Of a stretch of 42,498 nt of DNA, positions 1,051 through 35,452 are shown piece after piece. Numbering within the stretch: the first letter of the stretch is position 1; every line of letters starts with the position of its first letter. The position numbers were made by a program, and so were the translations under genes. A model generated the notes under the pieces. It made no database searches. It was not told where the DNA came from and saw nothing but the letters and a program-made list of their open reading frames with translations. This stretch comes from Alphaproteobacteria bacterium. GTDB taxonomy: Bacteria > Pseudomonadota > Alphaproteobacteria > Paracaedibacterales > CAIOTO01. Where the stretch lies: the NCBI GenBank assembly GCA_030727085.1, contig JANRCF010000035.1, positions 3,820 through 46,317 on the forward strand, written 5' to 3'.

Positions 1051-1947
1051 ATGATTCACAATAACGTTAACATTTGTCAGTTTATTTTGCCAGATTACGC
1101 GGTTGAACAATTCTTTACTGATGGCTATGTCGTTTGTAAGAATCGTTACGCATTGGATGAAGTTACTAAAATCAAGCAATGTGCGGATCATTTGCGCCAA
1201 AAAGCTGAACTGCTCTACTCTCACATCACAGAAAATAATATTAATGAATTAGGCTCTTATGCCTTGAGTGATGACGCCGCTTTTGATGTCCATTTTATTA
1301 ATTCTAATGGTGAAAACAACCTTTACTACGTTGATTATGAGGGGGCACGGTTCATACTAGGAAGTGCTAATGCGAAAATGGTAATTCATCGCATTGTGTG
1401 GGCTGGCGGCGCTGAGCCTTATTTGCTGGAAGTTTCGCGACAAGACAAACTACTGCGCCCAGTTTCTCAGCTTCTTCGGAGCAATACTGCGGATCATCTT
1501 ATCAATCAAATCCATTTTAAGATGCAAGGCGACGGTGTTGAATTTAAATGGCATCAAGATGTTATGAATAGGCGCTCATATGGAAAGCGGTGGGCTGATG
1601 TAAATGGAACAGGTAGCTTTGTGCAAACATTTATCGTGCTGGATGATACGACGTCAGAAAATGGCACGCTTAATCTTGTGAAAGGGCTACCGCCACAGGG
1701 TGATCTTTTTTTAGAAACTGTAAAAGATTCAGAGCAATTGAGAAAAGTGGCGAGGCTCGATGAGGCGTTCCCATTGGAATTAAATGTCGGTGATGTTTTG
1801 TTTATGCACCCCTATACGGTTCATGGCAGCGAGCCTAATAATTCCAGCCAAATACGCAGGCTTTTGATTAATGGTTTTTCCTGTCCTGGTGCGAATAAGG
1901 GCGATTATCCAGGTGTTGGAAGCGCAAAAGAGATTGATTTGGGTTGA
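1051..1947 (+). CDS. Phytanoyl-CoA dioxygenase (PhyH) family Fe(II)/2-oxoglutarate-dependent oxygenase
   Basis: 298-aa ORF. It has the facial-triad pattern FKWHQD (H-x-D) and a distal MHPYTVHGSEPNNS...IRR (His plus 2OG-binding Arg), which is typical of the PhyH family. Confidence 0.75.
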   Translation: MIHNNVNICQFILPDYAVEQFFTDGYVVCKNRYALDEVTKIKQCADHLRQKAELLYSHITENNINELGSYALSDDAAFDVHFINSNGENNLYYVDYEGARFILGSANAKMVIHRIVWAGGAEPYLLEVSRQDKLLRPVSQLLRSNTADHLINQIHFKMQGDGVEFKWHQDVMNRRSYGKRWADVNGTGSFVQTFIVLDDTTSENGTLNLVKGLPPQGDLFLETVKDSEQLRKVARLDEAFPLELNVGDVLFMHPYTVHGSEPNNSSQIRRLLINGFSCPGANKGDYPGVGSAKEIDLG

Positions 1948-1997
1948 GGCAAATTCCATTTGGTACAAGAGAAGTAAAAGCGACGAGAAATCAGAAA

Positions 1998-3593
1998 TTA
2001 CATCAGATTCTTTTGATAAAAATCATTAAGGTAGTTAGTTTTAAGCTTCATAAGCCTTTCAGCTGTTTCTTTGTTTTTCTTAAGATATGGTAGCATTTCT
2101 GCATATTTTTGTGGGGTCAGTGTGTTTGCAATTCGAATGATATCATCGGTGTTTTCAGCAATTAATATGCCGCGCGCGTCAAAATAGTCGGTGACATTTG
2201 GGCAGCCTAAGTAGATTGGTACAGTAAGCGTGAGAAAACAACTTGTTAGTTTTTCGGTCATATAATTATATTGCCTGCAGTTTTCAATCGCTATGTTAAA
2301 TTGCCCGCTTAAAATCCATTTCTTTGAATCATCAGGCATTTTCCGATCTTTGAATTTTGTAGAATAACTATCAATAGCGCGGTTTGAAACATAGAATTTA
2401 CGAGGGATGGCTGTTATTTCTGCTTCACGTTCCCAAAATTTTAAACGGGAGGTATATGTGCGTGATGGGTCTTGTAGATAGTTTGTGTCTCCAACAGCGC
2501 CCAGGGATAATAAATACCCTAATTCAAACGGTTTGTTATCAAGTTGGGTGCCAGCAAAGTTATCCCAATTTTCGACTAAATGGCCTGGGATAATCCTTTC
2601 ATTTTTTGTACCTAATGGCAGGCCTGTGAAGACCAAATCGTAACCATCCGAAATACGCCTTAGAAAGATTTTGTACTCAGTTTCTGTGCTAGCAAAGCTA
2701 CAATAGTGAAGAGGTTCTGATTCATGAAATGCGATATTGATAACGAGCGGATTGATTCGACCCTCGACCGTGTAGTTCGTATACATCGGTAATCTATGCA
2801 TGATGTAGTAGAATTTTTTACCCTCTACGTTGTGTGAGTAGTAATATCGTTCATGTCTCCATTCAAGTGTTCCAGGTTCTTTGATGGATGTTTCTTTTTC
2901 AGGGTTAATGCCAAAGGCTGTTGGGTTTTGTATAAATGGACTTTTGTAAAAGCTCAATTCGCTGTTATTATTTAATTGTACATCAAGGCCGCGGTTGATC
3001 ATTGATTTGAAGCAAATAGGTATTGCATTAAATTTTGATGGAGAGAGACGCACAATGACTTTGTATGTTTTGAACCGCAATAATGCTTCTGCAGCCATCC
3101 ATGCACGATGTACTTCGCTGCTATCTTTGATGCAGACTTCAACAATGGGTGCCGTTGGTGAAAGGTCAGTTTTGGGTTGTGATAAGAAATCCACAAATGG
3201 ATTACCTTCGCATGGCCATAAGCGTTCCTTATAGAGGGTGATGTTGAACCAGGAGTTCGGATCGCGGTGTGTTTTTCGCTCGCCTTGCCAGCCATGTTTC
3301 ATAAAGTGATCGATAGGTGTTAAGCCTGTTTTATCGAGGTCTTCTTTGTATTGGTCTTTATAAAAATTCTCATCGAAATAAGGTTCTATTAGTTTTTTTT
3401 GTTGTTCGTAGGAAAGCTGTGCCAAGGTTTCAGTTGTGGGTAAGGCAGTGTTTACTGGTGGAGTAGAGGTAGCAGGTTGCTGCGCTATTACGGTGAAAGA
3501 AAAATTGATCGTGACAATGAAAGTTAACGTAAAATAAAGAATGTATTTTTTCATAAAATCATCAATGAGAAGTATGTATTTAAAATTTAGCAT
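1998..3593 (-). CDS. Signal-peptide/anchor protein with a C-terminal GT10 (alpha-1,3/4-fucosyltransferase-like) glycosyltransferase domain
   Basis: 531-aa ORF. The more likely start is the ATG at 3554 (MKKYILYFTLTFIVTINFSFTVIAQQ, a hydrophobic signal or anchor). The C-terminal QFNIAIENCRQYNYMTEKLTSCFLTLTVPIYLGCPNVTDYFD matches the GT10 signature seen in Helicobacter FucT (FNLCFENSxxxGYVTEK...IPIYWGxP). The N-terminal part has an FDENFYKDQY...HFMKHGWQGER motif common in bacterial glycosyltransferase-associated proteins. Confidence 0.6.
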   Translation of the reverse strand: MLNFKYILLIDDFMKKYILYFTLTFIVTINFSFTVIAQQPATSTPPVNTALPTTETLAQLSYEQQKKLIEPYFDENFYKDQYKEDLDKTGLTPIDHFMKHGWQGERKTHRDPNSWFNITLYKERLWPCEGNPFVDFLSQPKTDLSPTAPIVEVCIKDSSEVHRAWMAAEALLRFKTYKVIVRLSPSKFNAIPICFKSMINRGLDVQLNNNSELSFYKSPFIQNPTAFGINPEKETSIKEPGTLEWRHERYYYSHNVEGKKFYYIMHRLPMYTNYTVEGRINPLVINIAFHESEPLHYCSFASTETEYKIFLRRISDGYDLVFTGLPLGTKNERIIPGHLVENWDNFAGTQLDNKPFELGYLLSLGAVGDTNYLQDPSRTYTSRLKFWEREAEITAIPRKFYVSNRAIDSYSTKFKDRKMPDDSKKWILSGQFNIAIENCRQYNYMTEKLTSCFLTLTVPIYLGCPNVTDYFDARGILIAENTDDIIRIANTLTPQKYAEMLPYLKKNKETAERLMKLKTNYLNDFYQKNLM

Positions 3594-3778
3594 TAATGCA
3601 ATAATTTTGTAAAGTTAGATTATGCGGGCTTGATACTAGCAAAATTACATAATTTGAATCGCTCACTAAGCATTATAATAATGAGTGTGACAGTATCAGC
3701 GATACGGTCATTTTTTCCTTGTTGTGACAGTTCTACTTTTATGGCATAGCTTAAGTAACACCTTAAAAAAGATTTTGC

Positions 3779-5776
3779 ATGTCCTCTCCAACGATCACTC
3801 ACAAGCCACTTCAAATAGTATCGCCATTCTCGCCTGCAGGTGATCAACCGGCGGCCATAGCTGCCCTAATTGATGGGTTGAATCAGAATGAGAAAAATCA
3901 AGTTCTACTTGGTGTAACTGGATCAGGCAAAACCTTTACAATAGCGAATGTGATTCAGGCGGTGCAACGGCCAGCGATTATTTTGGCGCCAAATAAAACG
4001 CTAGCGGCGCAGTTGTATGCCGAAATGCAAAGTTTTTTCCCACATAACGCGGTTGAATATTTTGTGTCGTATTATGATTATTATCAGCCAGAGGCATATG
4101 TGCCGCGCTCTGATACATTCATTGAAAAGACGGCTGCTATTAACGAACAGATCGATCGCATGCGTCATTCGGCTACACGGGCATTGCTTGAACGATCTGA
4201 TGTAATTGTGGTGGCGTCAGTGTCATGCATCTACGGTATTGGCGGCGTTGAAACGTATAGCGAAATGGTGCTTGAACTACGTAAAGGCATGTCCCTTGAT
4301 CGCACGAATTTACTGCGTAAATTGACCGAGCTTCAATACAAACGAAATGACATTGCTTTTGTGCGTGGTACGTTTCGGGTGCGTGGTGATATTCTTGATA
4401 TTTTTCCGTCACACTTTGATGAACGCGCTTGGAAGATTAGTTTTTTTGGCGATGAGCTTGAAGAGATTGTTGAAGTCGATGCGTTAACAGGTGAGCGTTT
4501 TGAAAAGCTAGATAAAGTAATTGTTTATCCCAATAGTCACTATGTGACGCCTGGACGTACAATTCAGCAAGCGATTAAGCAAATTCAAAGTGATCTTATA
4601 ATAAGGTTGGCAGAGTTTCGCCAAGACAATAAATTGCTTGAGGCGCAACGTCTTGAGCAGCGCACCATGTTTGATCTTGAAATGATGGCAGCAACTGGCT
4701 CATGTGCGGGTATTGAAAATTATTCGCGATATCTGACGGGTAGGGCGCCAGGCTCTGCTCCACCGACGTTGTTTGAATATTTACCAAATGATGCTTTGTT
4801 GATCATTGACGAGAGTCACGTTGCCGTACCCCAGCTGGGTGCGATGTATAAGGGCGATAAAGCACGTAAAACGACATTATCCGATTATGGGTTTCGCTTG
4901 CCTTCCTGCAAAGATAATCGTCCGTTGATGTTCGAGGAATGGGAAGCTATGCGCCCGCAAACAGTGTTTGTATCAGCAACGCCTGGTCCATTTGAGCTTG
5001 ATCAAACGCAAGGTGTATTTGTCGAGCAATTGATTCGCCCGACTGGCTTAGTTGATCCTATGTGCGAGATTCACCCTTGTGAGAATCAAGTGGATGATTT
5101 GATTCATGAATGCAAAGCGACGGTTGCAAAAGGGTATCGTATTTTGGTAACTACACTTACAAAACGGATGGCGGAATCACTGACGGATTACCTAACGGAG
5201 GCAGGCCTTAAAACATGTTATCTGCATTCGGATATTGATACGTTAGAGCGTATTCAGATTCTGCAGCAATTGCGTAAGGGTACGCATGATGTGTTGGTGG
5301 GTATTAACTTGCTTCGTGAAGGGTTAGACATTCCTGAATGCGGTTTGGTTGCAATTTTGGATGCCGATAAAGAAGGGTTTTTACGTTCTAAAACATCTTT
5401 GATACAAACGATTGGGCGTGCTGCACGAAATGTGGATGGTCGCGTAATTTTATATGCGGACAAGATGACAAAGTCAATGGAAGGCGCATTGGCTGAAACG
5501 GATCGTCGTCGTGAGAAACAAGTTGAGTATAACGAAGCACATGGTATTACGCCGCAATCTATCCGTAAAGATTTAGCGCAATCGATGGATATGGATGGCG
5601 TAGGGGCTGCTGCCGAAAAGGCTGAAAAGTTGCATATTGATATAACCAAGATTGCGAAGCAAATTGCGGATTTGGAAAAGAAAATGCGCAAAGCCGCTGG
5701 TGATTTAGATTTTGAAAAGGCGGCGCAGTTCAGAGATGAGTTGAAGCAACTGAGGGAGATTCAGCTGACGTTGTAA
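3779..5776 (+). CDS. uvrB: Excinuclease ABC subunit B
   Basis: 665 aa. It shows [11 protein letters not shown], the Walker A motif [10 protein letters not shown], helicase motifs ([23 protein letters not shown]) and a C-terminal UVR domain ([28 protein letters not shown]). Confidence 0.97.
5462..5776. repeat. Direct repeat copy 1 (3' terminal 315 bp of uvrB)
   Basis: Aligns without indels to 8372..8686. By hand count there are about 35 mismatches in 315 positions. Confidence 0.95.
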
Positions 5777-17267: not shown

Positions 17268-20200
17268 TTGACTGAAAAAACCTCTTCATCTTCTTCCCCC
17301 CCCTACGACGGTTTCATACATCTTCGAGTGCACTCAGCCTATTCGCTGACCGAAGGGGCTATTTTGATGAAGAGTCTGCCAAAGCTGTGTCAAAAACAAA
17401 AAATGCCAGCCGTTGCATTGACTGATACGAATAACATGTTTGGTGCGTTGGAATTTTCGATGGCTGCGGCGGATGCGGGGATTCAGCCCATTATTGGCTG
17501 CCAGCTGACGGTTGATTTAAGCGCACATTTTTCAAAAATCACGACGACTCCAGCGTCGATGGTTTTCCTTGCTCAAAACGAAGCTGGTTACATGAACCTA
17601 ATGAAACTTGTAAGCCTTGCATATTTTAAGGAACAAGGATTGATTGGGCCGCACATTACAATGGCCGAACTTGCTAAGCATACGGATGGCGTGATTTGTT
17701 TGACGGGGGCGCATGAGGGGTCTCTTGCGCAATTGTTGCAGCTTACATCTGAAGACTCGCGTAAGGAATATGCTGATTCCTTCACAAAAACACTGCTCGA
17801 TCTGTTCCCGAATCGTTTGTATATGGAATTGCAACGCCACGGCATACCGCTTCAACAGCAGTTAGAGCCTGACTTTCTTGATCTTGCGATTCGTTTTGAC
17901 ATACCACTTGTAGCAACGAATAATGTGTTTTTTGGCACACCCGATATGTATGACGCGCATGATGCGCTGCTGTGTATTGCGGCCGGTACCTATGTGGAAC
18001 AAGATCAACGTCGCACCGAAACGCCGCGTCATTATTTTAGGTCGGCGGCCGAGATGAAAGAGGCTTTTGCAGATCTACCTGAGGCGACCCAGAATACAGT
18101 TGTGATCGCGCGTCGTTGTTATTACAGGCCGCTGCCGCGCAAACCTATTTTGCCGAGTTTTCCGACGGTTTCAGGGCGTAGTGAAACGGAAGAAATGTGG
18201 GATCAGTCCCATGCAGGTCTTGAAGTGCGTTTGACAGAGGAAGTTTTTAATCGCTTTCTAACTGAGCAACATGAAGAACTACGTGCGCAATACATAGAAC
18301 GTCTGCGATACGAGCTTGGTATCATTGAACGGATGGGGTTCCCTGGGTACTTTTTGATCGTATCTGACTTCATCAAATGGGCAAAAGATCGAGGAATTCC
18401 TGTGGGGCCAGGCCGTGGTTCAGGGGCGGGCTCGCTTGTCGCATGGTCACTGCTTATTACCGATATGGATCCCATCCGATTTAATCTGCTGTTCGAGCGT
18501 TTCTTGAACCCAGAACGTGTTTCAATGCCTGACTTTGACGTGGACTTTTGCCAAGATCGCCGTGATGAAGTGATCCGTTATGTGTGTGAAAAATACGGTA
18601 TGGATCGCGTGGCGCATATTATCACGTTTGGTAAATTGCAGGCGCGTATCGTGATTCGTGACGTGGGGCGCGTGCTGCAGATGCCGTATGGGCAGATTGA
18701 TCGTATTTGTAAGATGATTCCGAATAATCCGGCGAATCCTATGACACTGGCGCAATCGATCGAACATGAACCGCTTTTAAAACAGCAACGTGATGACGAC
18801 GAAATGGTTGCACGGTTAATGGATATGGGGATGAAGCTTGAGGGCTTATATCGTCACGCATCGACGCATGCGGCGGGTGTTGTGATTGGTGATCGTCCGC
18901 TTGATGAACTGGTGCCGCTATATCGCGATGAAAAGTCTGACTTGGCTGTGACGCAGTTCAATATGAAATATGTTGAAACAGCCGGGCTGGTGAAGTTCGA
19001 CTTTTTGGGGCTTAAGACGCTGACCGTCGTTGAATCATGCTGCCAATTGGTGAGAAACCTAACGGGCAAAGATTTCCGCATTCATACCATTCCATTGGAT
19101 GATCCGGCTACGTTTGCGCTGCTGTGCCGTGTTGAGGCTGTCGGCATATTCCAGCTTGAAAGTGCTGGTATGCGTGATGTGTTGCGGAAACTTCAGCCTG
19201 ACCGATTTGAAGATTTAATCGCGCTTGTGGCGCTCTATCGTCCAGGGCCCATGGATGATATTCCGCGCTATCTTGCATGTAAGCATGGCGAGGAAGCCGT
19301 TACATACTTGCACCCGCTGTTGAAAGATATTCTAGAGCCAACCTATGGCGTTATGGTTTACCAAGAACAAGTTATGCAGATCGCACAGGTCTTGGGTGGC
19401 TATACACTTGGTGCCGCTGACTTGCTACGTCGTGCAATGGGTAAGAAAATTAAGTCCGAAATGGATGCGCAGCGTGCCTTATTTACTGAAGGCGCCATTA
19501 AAAATGGTATTAAACCGAATATTGCGTCACAGATTTTCGATCAAATGGCAAAGTTCGCAGGGTACGGTTTTAACAAGTCGCACTCGGCGCCATATGCGTT
19601 GTTGGCTTACCAAACGGCGTATTTAAAAGCCAATTATCCGCTGCAATTTTTTGCAGCAACCATGACATTAGATATGCACAATACCGATAAACTGAATGTA
19701 TATCGTCAAGACCTTGATCGCCAAGAAATCCCCTTGTTGCCCCCAAGTGTGAATGAATCTGATGTGACTTTCACGGTTGAAGGTCATGGTATCAGGTATG
19801 CGCTGGCTGGGCTTAAAGGGGTAGGGGCGCAGGCGATGGAATCACTTGTTGCAGAGCGTACTAAAAATGGTGCATTCAAAAATTTACGTGATTTTGCAAC
19901 GCGCATTGACCCTGGCGTTATCAACAAACGGCAGCTTGAAAATATGGTAAACGCGGGCGCTTTTGATTGTTTGCATAATAATCGCCGGCAATTAAGTGAA
20001 GGCTTAGAGGCGTTACTTGGGATTTCTCAGCAAATACGATCTGAAAAATCAAGTAAACAACGCATGTTGTTTGGCAGCACAGCCACTGAAACCGAAAAAG
20101 ATGTGCCGCTACCAAATGTGATGGAATGGACACCGCTTGATCGTTTGCAAAAGGAATTCGATGCGATTGGGTTTTACTTAAGCGCACATCCTCTTGATAT

Positions 20201-20735
20201 GTATAAAGATGTGCTTGATCAATTAGGTGTTGTGAAGTCATGTGATTTGCTTGAGCGTGCAACGAGCAGCAATCAAACTGTCGCACTTGCAGGGATTATC
20301 TTAACGAAGCAAGAACGTACATCCAAAAAAGGCGATCGATTTGCCTTTGTGTCATTGACCGATTTGACAGGCGTGTTTGAGGTTGCATTTTTTTCAGAAG
20401 CCTTTGCATCGGTGCGTGATAAGTTGATTCCAGGGCAAGCAGTATATGTAACTGGGAATTTACGTGCGGACGGTGATGAAAGTTTTAGGCTAACGGGGAA
20501 CGGGCTGGAACCGTTAGATAACAAGGCTAAAGTTGATTCGTTGGAGCTATCTATTGACCCTAAACGGGCGAATGTCGCGCACCTTGGCGAGATAGTGCAG
20601 GGCCTTAGAAAGGGTCGAACAGTGCTTCATTTTTTGGTGCCGGTTGCAGGGATTGGTACGATTAAGGTGACACTTTCCGGTGGGTATGACGTAACGCCAA
20701 ATCAAAAAGCGACGCTGCTGCAAGTGTGTGGGTGA
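17268..20735 (+). CDS. dnaE: DNA polymerase III subunit alpha
   Basis: 1155 aa with an apparent TTG start. PHP domain FIHLRVHSAYSLTEG, polymerase core (GPGRGSGAGSLVAWSLLITDMDP, PDFDVDF, FQLES, ALYRPGP, FNKSHSAPYAL) and a C-terminal OB region. Confidence 0.97.
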   Translation: MTEKTSSSSSPPYDGFIHLRVHSAYSLTEGAILMKSLPKLCQKQKMPAVALTDTNNMFGALEFSMAAADAGIQPIIGCQLTVDLSAHFSKITTTPASMVFLAQNEAGYMNLMKLVSLAYFKEQGLIGPHITMAELAKHTDGVICLTGAHEGSLAQLLQLTSEDSRKEYADSFTKTLLDLFPNRLYMELQRHGIPLQQQLEPDFLDLAIRFDIPLVATNNVFFGTPDMYDAHDALLCIAAGTYVEQDQRRTETPRHYFRSAAEMKEAFADLPEATQNTVVIARRCYYRPLPRKPILPSFPTVSGRSETEEMWDQSHAGLEVRLTEEVFNRFLTEQHEELRAQYIERLRYELGIIERMGFPGYFLIVSDFIKWAKDRGIPVGPGRGSGAGSLVAWSLLITDMDPIRFNLLFERFLNPERVSMPDFDVDFCQDRRDEVIRYVCEKYGMDRVAHIITFGKLQARIVIRDVGRVLQMPYGQIDRICKMIPNNPANPMTLAQSIEHEPLLKQQRDDDEMVARLMDMGMKLEGLYRHASTHAAGVVIGDRPLDELVPLYRDEKSDLAVTQFNMKYVETAGLVKFDFLGLKTLTVVESCCQLVRNLTGKDFRIHTIPLDDPATFALLCRVEAVGIFQLESAGMRDVLRKLQPDRFEDLIALVALYRPGPMDDIPRYLACKHGEEAVTYLHPLLKDILEPTYGVMVYQEQVMQIAQVLGGYTLGAADLLRRAMGKKIKSEMDAQRALFTEGAIKNGIKPNIASQIFDQMAKFAGYGFNKSHSAPYALLAYQTAYLKANYPLQFFAATMTLDMHNTDKLNVYRQDLDRQEIPLLPPSVNESDVTFTVEGHGIRYALAGLKGVGAQAMESLVAERTKNGAFKNLRDFATRIDPGVINKRQLENMVNAGAFDCLHNNRRQLSEGLEALLGISQQIRSEKSSKQRMLFGSTATETEKDVPLPNVMEWTPLDRLQKEFDAIGFYLSAHPLDMYKDVLDQLGVVKSCDLLERATSSNQTVALAGIILTKQERTSKKGDRFAFVSLTDLTGVFEVAFFSEAFASVRDKLIPGQAVYVTGNLRADGDESFRLTGNGLEPLDNKAKVDSLELSIDPKRANVAHLGEIVQGLRKGRTVLHFLVPVAGIGTIKVTLSGGYDVTPNQKATLLQVCG
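20695..20735. repeat. 41-bp direct repeat copy 1 (last 13 codons plus stop of dnaE)
   Basis: The sequence cgccaaatcaaaaagcgacgctgctgcaagtgtgtgggtga recurs at 21746..21786 with a single mismatch. Confidence 0.95.
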
Positions 20736-30426: not shown

Positions 30427-31104
30427 ATGTCAAAATCCACTCAACCTCTTGAAACTATTATTGGCTATACATTCAAATCCCCTGCTTTGCTTGAAAAGGC
30501 ATTGTCCCACCCTAGTGCCGCCCAGCGTAATAAGGACTTTGAGCGCTTTGAATTTCTTGGTGATCGCGTGCTTGGACTTACCATGGCGGCTGTATTATTG
30601 GAACTTTTCCCAACGGAGCCTGAAGGGCATCTGGCAAAACGTCAAGCCGTGCTGGTATCGCGTGAATCGTGCCAGACAGTAGCTAGTCTCATTCAACTAG
30701 AAACACACATCAAGGCCGTGTGTGATTTGGGTGTGCACGAATCAAATATGATGGCAATACTTGCGGATGCGGTAGAGGCGCTACTAGGCGCAATGTATCT
30801 GGACGATGGGATAGCACCTTGTCACACATTCGTGCGACGCTTTTGGGCTGATTTGTTTCATAATTCAAAGGAGCCCCCAAAGGATGCGAAATCGAGCTTA
30901 CAAGAATGGCTGCAAAAACGTGGAAAACCAACACCTGTTTATACACCAACGGATGTGACGGGGCCTGCACATAATCCAACATTTGAGTGCGAAGTTCAGC
31001 TGGAAGGATTGCCGTTGTTTAAAGGCACAGGGCGTAACCGCCGCATGGCTGAGCAAGATGCAGCAAAGTCTGCGATGATATGGATTAACTCTGCTGCGCG
31101 TTAG
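30427..31104 (+). CDS. rnc: Ribonuclease III
   Basis: 225 aa. It has the RNase III signature FERFEFLGDRVLGL, then LADAVEALLGAMYLD, and a C-terminal dsRBD (KSSLQEWLQKRGKPTPVY...GTGRNRRMAEQDAAKSA). Confidence 0.95.
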   Translation: MSKSTQPLETIIGYTFKSPALLEKALSHPSAAQRNKDFERFEFLGDRVLGLTMAAVLLELFPTEPEGHLAKRQAVLVSRESCQTVASLIQLETHIKAVCDLGVHESNMMAILADAVEALLGAMYLDDGIAPCHTFVRRFWADLFHNSKEPPKDAKSSLQEWLQKRGKPTPVYTPTDVTGPAHNPTFECEVQLEGLPLFKGTGRNRRMAEQDAAKSAMIWINSAAR

Positions 31105-31302
31105 CTGGACTTCTTTAACTTGTCATCCGCGGATTTGATCCACTACTGTACGAACGTTGTTCAATAAAGTAGCTTTTATTTAAATAATCTAAATATTTCA
31201 TTCAAATTAACTAAATATTAATTCTTCCATGTCAAAGTTTTCATAGATGGTGGAGGTTTATTATTCAAATTTCCTCATTTCATAGAAAATTAGGAGGTTT
31301 AA

Positions 31303-32763
31303 ATGAAATTTAAATTAAAATTACTCGGCACGTGTTTAGGCCTTGCTTTATCGTGCACAAGTTCATACGCCGTGTCTGGTGTAAGTGACGCATTAAATGC
31401 ACTAGGAACCGGCGTTAGTGCATTAACTACTAAAGTAATTGCACCTGCAAATACGAGTGATATTGCTGATTTAAGCACCACTGTTGTAGCAAACCTTACT
31501 ACTACACAGTTTGCCGCGTTATCTACAGTTCAAATACCTGCATTAACAACAGCACAACTCGCGGCCGTCACAACAGGGCAAATTGGTGCGATGACATCGG
31601 CGCAAGCCAAAGTTTTAACGTCAACACAAATTGCAGCCCTTCCTTCTATTAGCCGCATGGGTTCAGATGTCATCACAGCGATTACAACAGCTGCACTGCC
31701 AAGCTTGTCAACATCATTGCTGACTACGCTAACAACAGCACAAATAGCCGCGCTAACAACAGCACAAATAGCCTCGTTAACAACGGCACAAGTTGCAGCT
31801 ATAACGACAGAACAAATGCCTGTATTGTCAACAGCAGAGCTTTCTGCTATGACAACAGCACAATTTGCTGCATTAACATCAACCCAACTCAATACATTAT
31901 CCAACGTAAAAGTCGCAAGTCTTTCGTCAGCAAAAGTAGCTGCTATGCCAACGTCAGTGGTTACTGGTTTGTCAACAGCCTTAGTGCCTTATATAGCTGA
32001 TACGGCGATACCATATTTAACAACAGCCCAAATAGCTGCAATACAATCTGCTCAATTAGCTGTTTTAGACCTGACACAAGTCAATGCGCTTACATCAAGT
32101 CAAATGAGTGCTATAGGCAGTGCTGTGTTTTCAGCGTTAACGTCACGTCAAATCCCAGCCTTGCATGCATCAGCTTTTGCTGGCATACCAACTTCCGTGA
32201 TGAGCGCCATAACACTCGGCCAAATTACAGCGCTTACTACAACTCAATTAAATGCCTTTTCGTCCTCTCAATTAAATTCCATACCAACAGCAACTTTTAC
32301 GACATTAACAACAGGTGCTTCAGGGCAAATCGCAAGCTTGCCAACATCACTTATTGCAAATATTACTACTGCATATATGACAGCCTTAGCAACAAATCAG
32401 CTAACATCTTTAACAACAGCTCAGGTAAACGCCATGACCTCTGCACAGGTTAGTGCATTGGCAGCAACAATGAGCACTCTGCTATCAAATCAATTTGCTG
32501 GATTGTCTTCGTCAAATCTTGCTGGTTTATCCACAGCAGCATTAACAGCTCTAGGCTCCGACCAACTGCGGTCAATACCTGCAGCCGCTATACCAGGCCT
32601 CCCATTGGGTTTAACTTCAGATTTATTGTCAGCAATGATTTCTAGCACGACAACCAGCTTTACACCCGCACAAGCACGTGCCTTTACGTCATCTCAGTTT
32701 TCTTCAACTGCGCTGGCTGGCAACACCAACATGACTTCATGGAGGGCTCTCGCTATTGCATAG
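31303..32763 (+). CDS. Secreted tandem-octapeptide-repeat protein (about 45 LTTAQIAA-like units)
   Basis: 486 aa with a strong RBS (aggaggtttaaATG) and the signal peptide MKFKLKLLGTCLGLALSCTSSYA. Residues 65 to about 432 parse into 8-residue units with consensus [LIM]-[TS]-[TS]-x-Q-[ILVF]-x-[AS]. Confidence 0.7.
   Translation: MKFKLKLLGTCLGLALSCTSSYAVSGVSDALNALGTGVSALTTKVIAPANTSDIADLSTTVVANLTTTQFAALSTVQIPALTTAQLAAVTTGQIGAMTSAQAKVLTSTQIAALPSISRMGSDVITAITTAALPSLSTSLLTTLTTAQIAALTTAQIASLTTAQVAAITTEQMPVLSTAELSAMTTAQFAALTSTQLNTLSNVKVASLSSAKVAAMPTSVVTGLSTALVPYIADTAIPYLTTAQIAAIQSAQLAVLDLTQVNALTSSQMSAIGSAVFSALTSRQIPALHASAFAGIPTSVMSAITLGQITALTTTQLNAFSSSQLNSIPTATFTTLTTGASGQIASLPTSLIANITTAYMTALATNQLTSLTTAQVNAMTSAQVSALAATMSTLLSNQFAGLSSSNLAGLSTAALTALGSDQLRSIPAAAIPGLPLGLTSDLLSAMISSTTTSFTPAQARAFTSSQFSSTALAGNTNMTSWRALAIA
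31495..32598 (+). repeat. In-frame 24-nt periodic coding repeat array
   Basis: Adjacent units are nearly identical at DNA level, for example ctaacaacagcacaaatagccgcg (31729..31752), ctaacaacagcacaaatagcctcg (31753..31776) and ttaacaacggcacaagttgcagct (31777..31800). Confidence 0.85.
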
Positions 32764-32789: not shown

Positions 32790-32816
32790 GCGGGGGCATT
32801 ATGCCTCCGTTCTTTT
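32790..32816 (+). terminator. Rho-independent terminator after the repeat-protein gene
   Basis: The stem GGGGGCA (32792..32798) pairs with TGCCTCC (32802..32808): 7 bp including one G-U, with a 3-nt loop. It is followed by gttctttt. Confidence 0.6.
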
Positions 32817-32914
32817 GCGTAAATACATCAATTTTATTTAAAATTTTATATTGAAAAGCTTTTTGAAATCTTTCACACTTATTACTATGAAATAATTATT
32901 TTTAGGAAATTCTT

Positions 32915-35452
32915 ATGAAAAAGCGATCATTCATTCTTGCCTTGCTCATGTCTACCTCATTTACGTGCGGAGTCGCATTGGCAACAACAAGCGATCCCTT
33001 AGAAAACGAATTGTCTGAAGGGCTGCATATAGCGGCAACAGAAGGTCTGTCTGCGGATGTCTTGTCTGAAAAGTCAGGAACAGTGCTAACAACAAACGAC
33101 CCAACAGGAAATGTCTTGTATGGAGGGCAGCAAGCACATGAACTTTTTCAAAAGCAATCACTAAACATATCGTACTTTCTTGCATGCAAAGTAAAGGAAA
33201 GACACAGCTTTAAAACGCTTTACGAAGATGCGGCAAACCTTAGGAAAGATGTTGCTGAAAGAACAAACACGCTCAATGCGCAAGATTTTGGCGTTTTACG
33301 CACCCCAGAAAGCGTGCCATGGGCAGCTGGTGCGACTACTCCTGTTTTGCAATATCCAGATATGACCAGAACAGTTACTGAACACTTAGTATCACTAGAC
33401 AAAACAGAAGAATTTGCCCGACTTGGTGACGAGCTTGAATATCGCTATCGCACACGAACAGTTGCTGAATGGTTGGCTCTTGCAGAAACCGAACACACCG
33501 AGAATAATCAATTAAAAACATTTTTACAACGTGTTCTTACTGGACAACGTGACCCAGAGAATAAAGATGGTTGTATGTGGTTGTTTGATAAAGAAAAAGA
33601 TTGGGTAGATGTTGATGGTGCTAAAGTATTTAAACCAAATCCATTGACTATGTATCGGTATAGTCGGTGGCTTAAAGCCGCATATGAATTTGCAACACAT
33701 AAAGAAGACCCATACGATCTATCTGAAAAAATAAACATTACACTTTCTTACGTTGAGGTGAGATTCAGTGGCACAGATGTTCATTCACGTGGTTTTATGT
33801 TTCCAAGCGATTCTGACAGTAAGCCTGATCTTTCAGACCGTCCTTTTGCTCTTTGCCACCCACCCACAAATAGCGTCGAATATCATTTAGGAAAATGTCA
33901 TGATGCGTTTGAAGCAGCACGCCGTTGCACAGGTGATGTAGGGGCAAAAATTAGAAAAATTCTTGGCTTTACACATGTTTGGTCAGTAACTATGCCTTAT
34001 GCCAGAGGCTCTGCTGCCGATAATGAATTTCTTACCACCGCTTTGTTTGTTTATCATAAGTTAGGCTTGCCAAAACGTGACGTTCTTCGCAAAGCAGATG
34101 AGTATGCACAAGCGTCTTTTACCGCGCAACAATTCGCAAACAAAATGCTTGAATTAGGCATCGAAGAGTTAGATCCATTACCATTCACAATGGAAGAGTT
34201 TTTAAAGACATTAATTCCTGCTGCACTTGATGAACAAGCCTTAGCTTTGAGAAAAAGTGAAGAAGAAAAAGCAGAATTAACCGCAGCGAAAGGAAACACC
34301 GTTCCAAAAGAATACCCGGATTCAATTTTTGGTGTATCTGCAAAACCTGGCATGTACGTATTAGATAATTTAGTTCACCATTTGAATGAAAGGCCTGCAT
34401 ATTTTGATCTTTTAAATTACATTACGGGACATATCAAAGGTATTGTGTCAAGAATACCAGGCGTTGATGCAGATGCTTATCAAAGACTACAAGTACCTCT
34501 CGCAAAATTGGCGCCATGTGAAACAGCATTTACTGCTGCACTGATGTATCAAAGTGACGACGCAACAACATATGAAAACATCAAGCGCTATTACGAATTA
34601 TATAATGAAACAAAACCTTACGCTGAAGGCACAGAAATGGTAAATAATTTACTATTTCAAGCATTATGTTTGCACAATAATATTGTCCCGCAATTAATGG
34701 ATGGGACGTCATTGATAAGCCCGCAAAAGCCAGATGCTCCTTTAATAAATCCACTGTTTAAAGGGCGCCATGTGGTTGCCACTACTCAGGAAACAGCAGA
34801 TAGAATAAGTGGCCATTTGAATGAAACGTTTGATCCAGCCGCGCGTACTACGCAGTTATGTGAAATAATGAAAAGACATGGTTCCGACAAAAGTACTGTT
34901 CACAACTACACAAGAATGTATCAGTTCTTACTTGAATCAAAACGCGAGACAGCGACAAACGTTTTTGAAATTGGAATTGCTTCTACCGATCCTCAGTTTG
35001 CTTACACAATGGGTAAAGATGGAACAGTAGGTGCATCTTTGCGTGGATGGCGTGAATTTTTTCCAAATGCGCGTATCTATGGTGCGGACATTGATGCTAA
35101 AGCCTTATTTCAAGAAGAACGCATTAACACCTATTTTGTGGATCAATTAAAGACAGATGCGATCTCAACTATGTTCGCTCAAATTCCTGTTGCAGGTTTT
35201 GACGTAATGATTGATGACGGACTGCACTGTTTTGAGGCAAATGATATTTTCTTTAAAGCAGCAATTGATAAGTTGACGCCAGGTGGAATCTATATCATTG
35301 AAGATATTGCCCCCCGAGGCGTCCCTCTCGTTTTGAAATTACTCGAAGAAATTTCTGGTGAATATGATGCGGCATTTATTCAATTGCCAACCGCACCTGC
35401 GCGATTTGACAATAATATTTTTGTGGTATTTAAAAAAGCAATAGAGGTTTAG
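32915..35452 (+). CDS. Secreted 845-aa protein: unknown N-terminal ~640 aa fused to a C-terminal class I SAM-dependent methyltransferase domain
   Basis: Signal peptide MKKRSFILALLMSTSFTCGVALA. The C-terminal ~200 aa (nt ~34860..35452) reads HGSDKSTVHNYTRMYQFLL...VFEIGIAS...GASLRGWREFFPNARIYGADID...FDVMIDDGLH...LTPGGIYIIEDI. This gives Rossmann MTase motif I, post-I and motif II/III in canonical order. Confidence 0.7.
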   Translation: MKKRSFILALLMSTSFTCGVALATTSDPLENELSEGLHIAATEGLSADVLSEKSGTVLTTNDPTGNVLYGGQQAHELFQKQSLNISYFLACKVKERHSFKTLYEDAANLRKDVAERTNTLNAQDFGVLRTPESVPWAAGATTPVLQYPDMTRTVTEHLVSLDKTEEFARLGDELEYRYRTRTVAEWLALAETEHTENNQLKTFLQRVLTGQRDPENKDGCMWLFDKEKDWVDVDGAKVFKPNPLTMYRYSRWLKAAYEFATHKEDPYDLSEKINITLSYVEVRFSGTDVHSRGFMFPSDSDSKPDLSDRPFALCHPPTNSVEYHLGKCHDAFEAARRCTGDVGAKIRKILGFTHVWSVTMPYARGSAADNEFLTTALFVYHKLGLPKRDVLRKADEYAQASFTAQQFANKMLELGIEELDPLPFTMEEFLKTLIPAALDEQALALRKSEEEKAELTAAKGNTVPKEYPDSIFGVSAKPGMYVLDNLVHHLNERPAYFDLLNYITGHIKGIVSRIPGVDADAYQRLQVPLAKLAPCETAFTAALMYQSDDATTYENIKRYYELYNETKPYAEGTEMVNNLLFQALCLHNNIVPQLMDGTSLISPQKPDAPLINPLFKGRHVVATTQETADRISGHLNETFDPAARTTQLCEIMKRHGSDKSTVHNYTRMYQFLLESKRETATNVFEIGIASTDPQFAYTMGKDGTVGASLRGWREFFPNARIYGADIDAKALFQEERINTYFVDQLKTDAISTMFAQIPVAGFDVMIDDGLHCFEANDIFFKAAIDKLTPGGIYIIEDIAPRGVPLVLKLLEEISGEYDAAFIQLPTAPARFDNNIFVVFKKAIEV

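Follow-up and report, generated by a model that had tools for sequence, protein, structure and literature searches.

Several glycosylated repeat adhesins with dedicated transferases are known, namely AIDA-I with Aah, TibA with TibC, HMW1 with HMW1C, and the serine-rich repeat proteins of Gram-positive bacteria. In these systems an exported repeat protein is encoded beside its glycosylating enzyme. A comparable logic is suggested by the window analysed here, which is the whole 42,498-nucleotide stretch of contig JANRCF010000035.1 (assembly GCA_030727085.1) from an alphaproteobacterium of the order Paracaedibacterales. In this window, a gene at 31303..32763 encodes a putatively exported octapeptide-repeat protein of the ALTTAQ family (the rod), and the next gene encodes a likewise putatively exported AvrB-like enzyme (the partner). 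In the AIDA-I-type adhesin systems, however, the enzymes are cytoplasmic and act before export, and the repeats are β-helices or disordered, whereas the rod is a predicted helical screw. No homology of the two-gene module to AIDA-I-type, TibA-type, HMW1-type or serine-rich repeat systems was detected in this analysis.

Two other described systems are close to one or the other of the two proteins. AvrB and AvrC of Pseudomonas syringae are Fido-type protein O-rhamnosyltransferases with a threonine acceptor and UDP-rhamnose as donor, and the known target of AvrB is a host protein (PMC10866546). For the rod, the best sequence match in the PDB (phmmer, E=3.3e-11) is 9ZEM, HeliScrew4, a designed 8-mer helical screw. 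The 2.2 Å crystal structure of HeliScrew4 is a tightly wound α-helical screw whose core is apolar and whose helices are N-capped by Ser or Thr; the designed screws consist of 8-residue units with an LTPEQIAA-like consensus, in which Pro is favoured at N1 (bioRxiv 10.64898/2025.12.04.691947). The same preprint calls the 8-mer screw fold nearly absent from nature, with 7QLR as the single natural example in the PDB, and asks why it is so rare (bioRxiv 10.64898/2025.12.04.691947).

The explanation that we prefer, with a probability of about 55%, combines three elements: the rod is an ALTTAQ helical screw, its gene and the partner gene belong to one accessory module, and the rod is the acceptor of the partner enzyme. 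The features of the rod gene are as follows.

31303..32763, forward strand: open reading frame of the rod, 486 residues, the only long frame across this stretch
31292..31297, forward strand: Shine-Dalgarno sequence AGGAGG, 5 nucleotides 5' of the ATG at 31303, by direct sequence reading
31303..31371, forward strand: Sec signal peptide, residues 1-23, MKFKLKLLGTCLGLALSCTSSYA and then VSG, as read from the sequence
31372..31470, forward strand: N-terminal cap, residues 24-56, made of loosely octad-like units (orthologue alignment)
31471..32574, forward strand: ALTTAQ octad array, residues 57-424, about 46 units in four in-phase blocks (PF20080, unit parse, lag-8 test, AlphaFold2)
31730..31803, forward strand: units nearly identical at the DNA level, LTTAQIAA, LTTAQIAS and LTTAQVAA (Tandem Repeats Finder and repeat-family search)
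32575..32763, forward strand: C-terminal non-repeat tail, residues 425-486, and stop codon (orthologue alignments)

The rod matched the Pfam family PF20080 (ALTTAQ repeat) in 10 stretches with 170.1 bits against a gathering cut-off of 26.4 (E=6.8e-51), and a six-frame PF20080 search of the source genome recovered the same gene. An earlier note on this DNA, made from the sequence alone, had not recognised the repeat as a named family. The Pfam hidden Markov model (HMM) search corrects this point, and the family it found is one without known function. The rod is a member of a catalogued, unstudied Pfam family, and the existence of the repeat is not new; the NCBIfam scan gave no family for the protein, and the name ALTTAQ occurs in none of the papers of the literature library searched. 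The new element is the strictly co-occurring exported AvrB-like/MycE-like partner enzyme.

Of the 62 genomes of the order that were searched, an identical set of 8 contains PF20080 and the N-terminal domain of the partner; in the remaining 54, neither was detected. These eight genomes span three genera and two families. The ALTTAQ gene adjoins the AvrB-like gene in genomes G000, G005, G003, G004, G007 and G008 and in a metagenome contig of the European Nucleotide Archive (ENA); in G025, ALTTAQ genes and AvrB-like genes both lie at contig ends. In G002, G006 and G009, which are of the same genus, both genes are missing, and this concordance within the genus argues for joint gain and loss. In the source genus the ALTTAQ gene follows tamB-rnc, whereas the pair of the sister genus has another context and is preceded by an opposite-strand gene with a product that appears ParA-like by eye. 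The same large partner gene follows the ALTTAQ gene in both genera, and its orthologues show 77% and about 40% identity. At the same site in G001 and G003, also of the same genus, a different and shorter ALTTAQ protein (307-324 residues, about 30% identical) is encoded on the opposite strand. The ALTTAQ gene and the gene of the downstream exported enzyme are best read as an accessory two-gene module.

Outside this order, ALTTAQ genes are found beside enzymes of a different class. A tetratricopeptide repeat (TPR)-GT41 protein (PF13844, E at most 1e-67) directly adjoins the repeat gene in 8 of 30 unrelated ALTTAQ loci, and the other 22 have no adjacent transferase. The pairs of ALTTAQ and TPR-GT41 (OGT-like) proteins have in common with the module a Thr-rich rod encoded beside a candidate protein O-glycosyltransferase, but the partner here is non-homologous: its AvrB-like Fido domain is joined to a methyltransferase of the MycE type. 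No AvrB-like relative was found in the 30 other ALTTAQ loci, and no GT41 protein was found by the PF13844 search in five module-bearing genomes (G000, G005, G007, G008 and G025). Replacement of GT41 by an unrelated AvrB-like enzyme would be expected if the rod is a glycosylation scaffold. Judged by these neighbourhoods, ALTTAQ rods seem to be paired repeatedly with protein O-glycosyltransferases. That two unrelated classes of candidate Ser/Thr-directed transferases are encoded beside ALTTAQ rods, in different lineages, is the chief reason for regarding the rod as an acceptor substrate. As a side observation, the genome of Caulobacter vibrioides, a cultivable model organism, is positive for both PF20080 and GT41.

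The partner and its candidate active site are located as follows.

32915..35452, forward strand: partner gene, 845 residues, signal peptide, AvrB-like Fido domain and C-terminal MycE/TylE-type O-methyltransferase
34004..34099, forward strand: candidate catalytic motif R364-G-S-A-A368 ... D395 of the partner enzyme (invariant columns, HMMER against AvrB chains)

The conserved AvrB-like core covers approximately residues 275-410, and the methyltransferase approximately residues 643-845. The latter is related to sugar O-methyltransferases: it matched MycE (3SSM) with E=2.1e-12 as a single sequence and 1.8e-14 as a profile, and TylE (8IA9) with E=7e-11 and 1.4e-13, respectively, the match spanning the S-adenosylmethionine (SAM)-binding core. 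Methylation of Gln in the rod was rejected, since the enzyme next door belongs by type to the sugar O-methyltransferases. The earlier idea that Thr positions might be modified is indirectly favoured by the partner enzyme, whereas that of modified Gln is not.

Relatives of the N-terminal domain are few: 3 were obtained in a word-indexed search, and 31 representatives among 1.84 billion proteins by exhaustive HMMER search. Their conserved core reads ...HPP...FE.AR...TMP.ARGSAA.NE...H.LGLP...D..AQ. PF05394 (AvrB_AvrC) matched 9 of the 31 representatives (best E=8.1e-8), and AvrB chains were the sole PDB match of the profile built from all 31 (E=7.9e-6). R364-G365-S366-A367 and D395 are invariant in nine partner orthologues. 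The spacing of +31 between R364 and D395 is equal to that in the R266-G267-S-A269-A270 ... D297 motif of AvrB. In AvrB, R266 and G267 contact the β-phosphate, A269 and A270 contact the sugar and the α-phosphate, and D297 contacts the rhamnose; the activity of the R266A and D297A mutants is impaired (PMC10866546). The partner and AvrB/AvrC have in common this local homology in the Fido core, the R-G-S-A-A motif and the Asp 31 residues downstream. They differ in that the partner has a Sec signal peptide, whereas AvrB/AvrC are exported by type III secretion, and in that only about 95 of the approximately 400 residues of the partner domain are alignable and the domain is fused to a methyltransferase. 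The AvrB-type rhamnosyltransferase family was reportedly described only in 2024, and solely as a plant-pathogen effector.

In G001 (locus L058) and G003 (L055) the partner enzyme is split into two genes, with a signal peptide on each half; this argues that both activities are genuinely exported. The partner gene on the ENA contig (L070, 5341-7932) was also called as two products, of 214 and 643 residues, which could reflect a frameshift, an assembly error or a split point differing from that in G001 and G003. Other members of the AvrB-like family are fused to DUF3431, to a GT2/Fringe-like region, to an FkbM methyltransferase, or to the carbohydrate-binding modules CBM48, CBM20 and CBM56. These fusions mark the family as modular and point to carbohydrate chemistry. 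The carbohydrate-binding modules are of the starch/glycogen-binding type. Fusions of the AvrB-like domain to DUF3431 or the GT2/Fringe-like region, without the methyltransferase, were seen at L059 (G004, 1221-4007) and L060 (G025, 2-1978).

The rod itself is simple in composition. The mature protein has 463 residues and a mass of 46.1 kDa, with 19% Ala, 31% Ser plus Thr and 4.1% charged residues. The signal peptide shows, by eye, a basic n-region, a hydrophobic core and a small-x-small c-region. Cleavage by signal peptidase I after SYA is favoured by the alignment of the orthologues, in which the SYA/SYS motif is retained in the sister genus, where the proteins have no Cys. A weak lipobox (ALSC, Cys18) is present in the source genus only; a lipoprotein was rejected for this weakness and for its absence from the sister genus. 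The N-terminal cap is conserved among the orthologues (GxxxLLNxVGxxVSAL...DIAxL), and the C-terminal tail carries the conserved motifs IPAAAIPG and FTPAQARAFTxxQF and a Trp near its end.

The period of eight is strong. Residue self-identity peaked at lags 8 (0.26), 16 (0.23) and 24 (0.26), against about 0.10 at other lags. In residues 57-424 the lag-8 identity was 0.30, compared with 0.116 +/- 0.016 for shuffled sequences (n=2000; z=11.5, shuffle maximum 0.172). A dynamic-programming profile parse gave 48 units with the consensus L-T-T-A-Q-[LIV]-A-A, mostly in blocks 57-112, 119-334, 338-385 and 393-424, with inserts of 6, 3, 7 and 12 residues. Position 1 is L, I, M, F or V in 46 of the 48 units, position 2 is Thr or Ser in 35, position 3 is Thr (24) or Ser (19) in 43 and Pro in one, position 5 is Gln in 28, position 6 is aliphatic or aromatic in 45, and position 8 is Ala or Ser in 35. 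This bears out the earlier description of a protein with a signal peptide built almost wholly of octapeptides, and the inserts come close to the three units of irregular length claimed there. The Gln at position 5, which had been called near-invariant, is present in only 58% of the units. At the DNA level, Tandem Repeats Finder reported a period of 24 with 3.8 copies and 80% matches. The statement that neighbouring units are nearly identical in DNA holds for two or three units, in 31730-31803, where the longest run common to adjacent units is about 20 nucleotides; it fails elsewhere, where unit pairs are 60-72% identical.

Among 8000 candidates scored in a search of 5.8 billion proteins, at least 437 relatives of the rod had an E value of at most 1e-3, and nearly all of them carry PF20080. 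They occur in Rhizobium, Mesorhizobium, Rhizobiales, Hyphomonadaceae, Limnohabitans, Burkholderiales, Magnetococcales and other groups, and the best outside relative among the candidates scored is only 40% identical. Most of the relatives have an additional C-terminal PF26745 domain or calpain-type protease (PF00648) domain. The rod has the octad consensus of the other PF20080 proteins, and its HMM score is far above the cut-off, but it is short (about 46 units), repeat-only, provided with an N-terminal Sec signal peptide, and without a PF26745 or calpain domain. The automatic names on PF20080 proteins include "heme utilization protein" and "trimeric autotransporter adhesin". Pfam and NCBIfam searches at E up to 1 gave no autotransporter barrel, YadA anchor, RTX or other accessory domain in the rod, in line with the earlier remark that no barrel or RTX region is obvious; identity as an autotransporter, a trimeric autotransporter adhesin or an RTX protein was rejected, as no domain qualified. 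Identity as a leucine-rich repeat (LRR) protein was also rejected. LRR_EndoS reached 28.2 bits over the whole protein with no single stretch passing, the LRR matches in the PDB had E=4e-8 and worse at low coverage, and the predicted model contains no strands. These weak matches are due to the Leu periodicity of 24 residues (3 x 8).

AlphaFold2 was run on an alignment of 74 sequences. The mean predicted local distance difference test (pLDDT) score of the rod was 80.3; values of at least 90 were reached by 230 residues, most of which lie between about 50 and 330. The pLDDT climbs from 63 to 93 across the N-terminal cap and is below 50 for residues 416-486. The model consists of short helices only, one per octad. 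In the DSSP string, helices of 5-6 residues recur every 8 residues with pLDDT above 90; when 44 units are sorted by phase, 41-42 of them have coil at positions 1-2, and 37-44 have helix at positions 3-7. The fold is thus predicted to be an α, not a β, solenoid, a continuous screw of helices of 5-6 residues. The regular solenoid proposed in the earlier note is supported by this prediction as a superhelical repeat fold, but its β-type ladder of Gln and Thr is not, and a β-solenoid or ice-nucleation-like fold was rejected.

It is known that S/T-x-x-E/Q is the classical helix capping box. Since the helix of each unit spans positions 3-7 in the model and is preceded by coil at positions 1-2, Thr/Ser2 is best read as the N-cap, Thr/Ser3 as N1 and Gln5 as the N3 residue of the capping box; at N3 the conserved Gln is accounted for structurally. 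From the analogy to the HeliScrew designs, Leu1 and [LIV]6, probably together with Ala8, would form the apolar core. Comparison with the HeliScrew designs is informative. The 8-residue unit, one short helix per unit, the apolar core and the Ser/Thr N-cap are common to both, the last three by prediction in the rod. The consensus is LTPEQIAA in the designs and LTTAQIAA in the rod; N1 is Pro and the surface charged in the designs, whereas the rod has Thr or Ser at N1 and only about 4% charged residues. The helix-initiating Pro at N1, frequent in the designed and random screws though not a defining feature of the fold, is found in a single unit of the rod. Because the designs favour Pro where the rod has Thr or Ser in 43 of 48 units, the exposed hydroxyl at N1 seems to be a feature of the natural repeat which is not demanded by the fold itself. 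The designed 8-mer helical screw seems to have its natural counterpart in the ALTTAQ family. It should be mentioned that the designs were made with tools trained on natural sequences, so that the resemblance to ALTTAQ need not be independent convergence.

The array is well conserved among orthologues. Those of the same genus are 482 residues long and 72% identical by BLAST (G005) and 470 residues long and 76% identical (ENA contig); those of the sister genus, in G007 and G008, have 488 and 493 residues and are 40-42% identical. Across the two genera the orthologues align collinearly, each unit with its equivalent, and this holds also for the irregular units and for the non-repeat regions at both ends. 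The only change of whole units is an exact deletion of 16 residues (two units) in the ENA relative. This collinearity indicates that the array is not slippage-prone, and it appears to be an old, positionally stable structure of conserved length rather than a contingency locus. The comparison of repeat number among relatives, with lengths of 470-493 residues at 40-76% identity and a single indel, therefore speaks against the earlier suggestion that copy number could vary by slippage or recombination, and slippage-driven hypervariability was rejected.

The surroundings of the two genes contain the following further features.

30427..31104, forward strand: rnc (RNase III), by Pfam and synteny, the conserved upstream neighbour in the source genus
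32790..32820, forward strand: intrinsic-terminator-like hairpin of 9 bp with 6 G-C pairs, then TCTTTT (centroid -14.7 kcal/mol)
32872..32899, forward strand: sigma-70-like promoter match upstream of the partner gene; a consensus match only, the count of such matches being not above that in shuffled sequences

The hairpin and its T tract agree with the earlier statement that the rod gene has its own terminator, and the gene is read as a separate transcription unit. Its GC content, put at about 48% in the earlier note, was measured as 44.1%, and the description of it as native-like is misleading: GC content at third codon positions (GC3) is 0.30 in both the ALTTAQ gene and the partner gene, against 0.42-0.45 in rnc and the long gene at 17268-20735. 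This low GC3 common to both genes fits an accessory module. The overall GC content of the ALTTAQ gene (44%) is pushed up by Ala and Thr codons, and GC3 of tamB is 0.33. AT-rich short tandem repeats lie in the intergenic regions flanking the ALTTAQ gene, at 31174-31219 upstream (22 nucleotides x 2.1) and at 32877-32916 directly before the start codon of the partner (17 nucleotides x 2.4). G002 (L067) and G006 (L068) keep tamB-rnc with unrelated small genes downstream of rnc; as they lack the module, the site after rnc seems to be a variable slot for accessory genes.

The following scheme is proposed. The rod would be exported by the Sec pathway as a repeat-only ALTTAQ protein of 46 kDa in mature form, folded as one continuous α-helical screw. 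Thr/Ser3 at N1 and positions 4 and 7 would face the solvent, which would give a long, almost uncharged, hydroxyl-coated rod. This rod would be the acceptor of the downstream AvrB-like/MycE-like enzyme, which, outside the bacterial cytoplasm, would O-glycosylate its exposed Thr/Ser residues and methylate the attached sugar. Both the rod and the AvrB-like partner carry Sec signal peptides, so that enzyme and rod would meet outside the cytoplasm. In the simplest case both proteins would be delivered to the surface of the bacterium or into the host cytosol and would use host-derived donors. An intracellular alphaproteobacterium would thereby gain an envelope, or a secreted fibre, coated with sugar. 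Since the exported enzyme co-occurs next door, O-glycosylation of Thr/Ser of the rod with methylation of the sugar is the best available functional hypothesis. To the relation of enzyme and substrate and its location, taken separately, we would give a little less than even odds. The most specific version is tentative and should be regarded as doubtful; in it, a Sec-exported O-glycosyltransferase of the AvrB Fido type, joined to a deoxysugar O-methyltransferase, would have the rod as its dedicated, endogenous acceptor.

An intracellular lifestyle is consistent with what is seen in the relatives, whose genomes have 1.3-2.0 Mb. ATP/ADP translocases, a hallmark of obligate intracellular bacteria, are present in four of them. 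RmlC was not found in the near-complete module-bearing genomes G005, G007 and G008, and its absence fits the use of host sugar donors. A TrcR regulator was detected, in agreement with an alphaproteobacterium. The sole secretin found is a Secretin_N_2-type protein of 557 residues (L063, G000 contig 69, 1911-3584), followed by an open reading frame of 641 residues without a Pfam match.

Several observations weigh against the rod being such an acceptor, or against parts of the scheme. The periplasm offers neither nucleotide sugars nor SAM, so the scheme needs passage of the outer membrane. The search for an outer-membrane route found no gsp operon beside the Secretin_N_2-type secretin and no VirB4, and this route is the weakest link of the model. 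The partner of the window scored 13.6-16.1 bits on PF05394, below the cut-off of 23.2, and the AlphaFold2 model of its N-terminal domain, from an alignment of 3 sequences, had a mean pLDDT of 38.7. For these two reasons it is called only AvrB-like here, and not a demonstrated member of the AvrB/AvrC family. The HMMER alignment, with a gap in a loop, sets the partner Asp 2 residues off D297 of AvrB. The genomes with the module are related, and their co-occurrence perhaps reflects about 3-5 independent events of gain or loss. For the rod, Foldseek with the whole 486-residue model gave no PDB match at E<=1e-3; mesothelin and importin-type solenoids ranked highest, at TM-scores of no more than 0.42, and neither 9ZEM nor 7QLR was among the 50 matches listed. 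In the model, helix capping alone would largely account for Thr2, Thr3 and Gln5.

This last point also favours a different explanation, in which the two exported products, be they effectors or envelope proteins, work independently and are simply co-inherited on one accessory island. The rod would then be a passive spacer, coat or adhesin unmodified by its neighbour, and the enzyme would act on host proteins, as does AvrB, whose only known substrate is a host protein (PMC10866546). The terminator and the promoter-like site between the two genes fit such independence, as do the many ALTTAQ proteins with other C-terminal domains and the 22 of 30 loci that lack an adjacent transferase. It is difficult to reconcile with this explanation, however, that presence and absence of the two genes agree exactly in 62 genomes, that the pair is kept in two contexts and two orientations, that ALTTAQ proteins elsewhere pair independently with GT41 O-glycosyltransferases, and that Thr or Ser occupies N1, where designed screws favour Pro, in nearly all units. 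On balance we consider the two proteins unlikely to be independent.

A closer connection without modification is also conceivable, in which the rod would bind either the enzyme or the target of the enzyme and act as scaffold, stalk or targeting module. Most relatives have ALTTAQ arrays fused to calpain-type proteases or PF26745 domains, and a non-substrate partner would mirror such arrays fused directly to enzymatic or calcium-binding domains; the narrow length range of the rod across genera is as expected for a spacer of defined length. This exact length does not appear to be linked to the enzyme, however, which is kept in genomes with the shorter ALTTAQ protein, and a non-substrate role of this type seems improbable. 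Far less credible still is a β-type solenoid bearing Gln and Thr side chains as a functional ladder on one face, in which slippage in repeat number would produce a surface protein variable in phase or size. The short and regular period, the two or three adjacent units nearly identical in DNA and the one 2-unit indel between close relatives would suit it, but the model has helices only, at high confidence, and the closest solved sequence is an α-helical screw. Moreover, most units have diverged in DNA, orthologues at 40% identity are still collinear, and the neighbouring methyltransferase is of the sugar O-type and not a Gln methylase. The rod as the acceptor of the partner enzyme thus remains the reading that we prefer.

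For the fold, the ALTTAQ family suggests that the helical screw is common among bacterial exported proteins, contrary to the near-absence claimed in the preprint. At 46 kDa the rod is of a tractable size for structure determination, and Caulobacter vibrioides could serve as a tractable system for ALTTAQ proteins. A Sec-exported AvrB relative with a sugar methyltransferase and a candidate substrate next door would widen this enzyme class and would provide a simple two-protein test system. If the rod is indeed the acceptor, the module would represent a second way, non-homologous to GT41, of coating helical-screw proteins with sugar in bacteria, and the partner would be the first Fido glycosyltransferase with a bacterial self-substrate. 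It would then be an enzyme that works outside the bacterial cytoplasm, on nucleotide sugar and SAM supplied by the host, in an intracellular symbiont.

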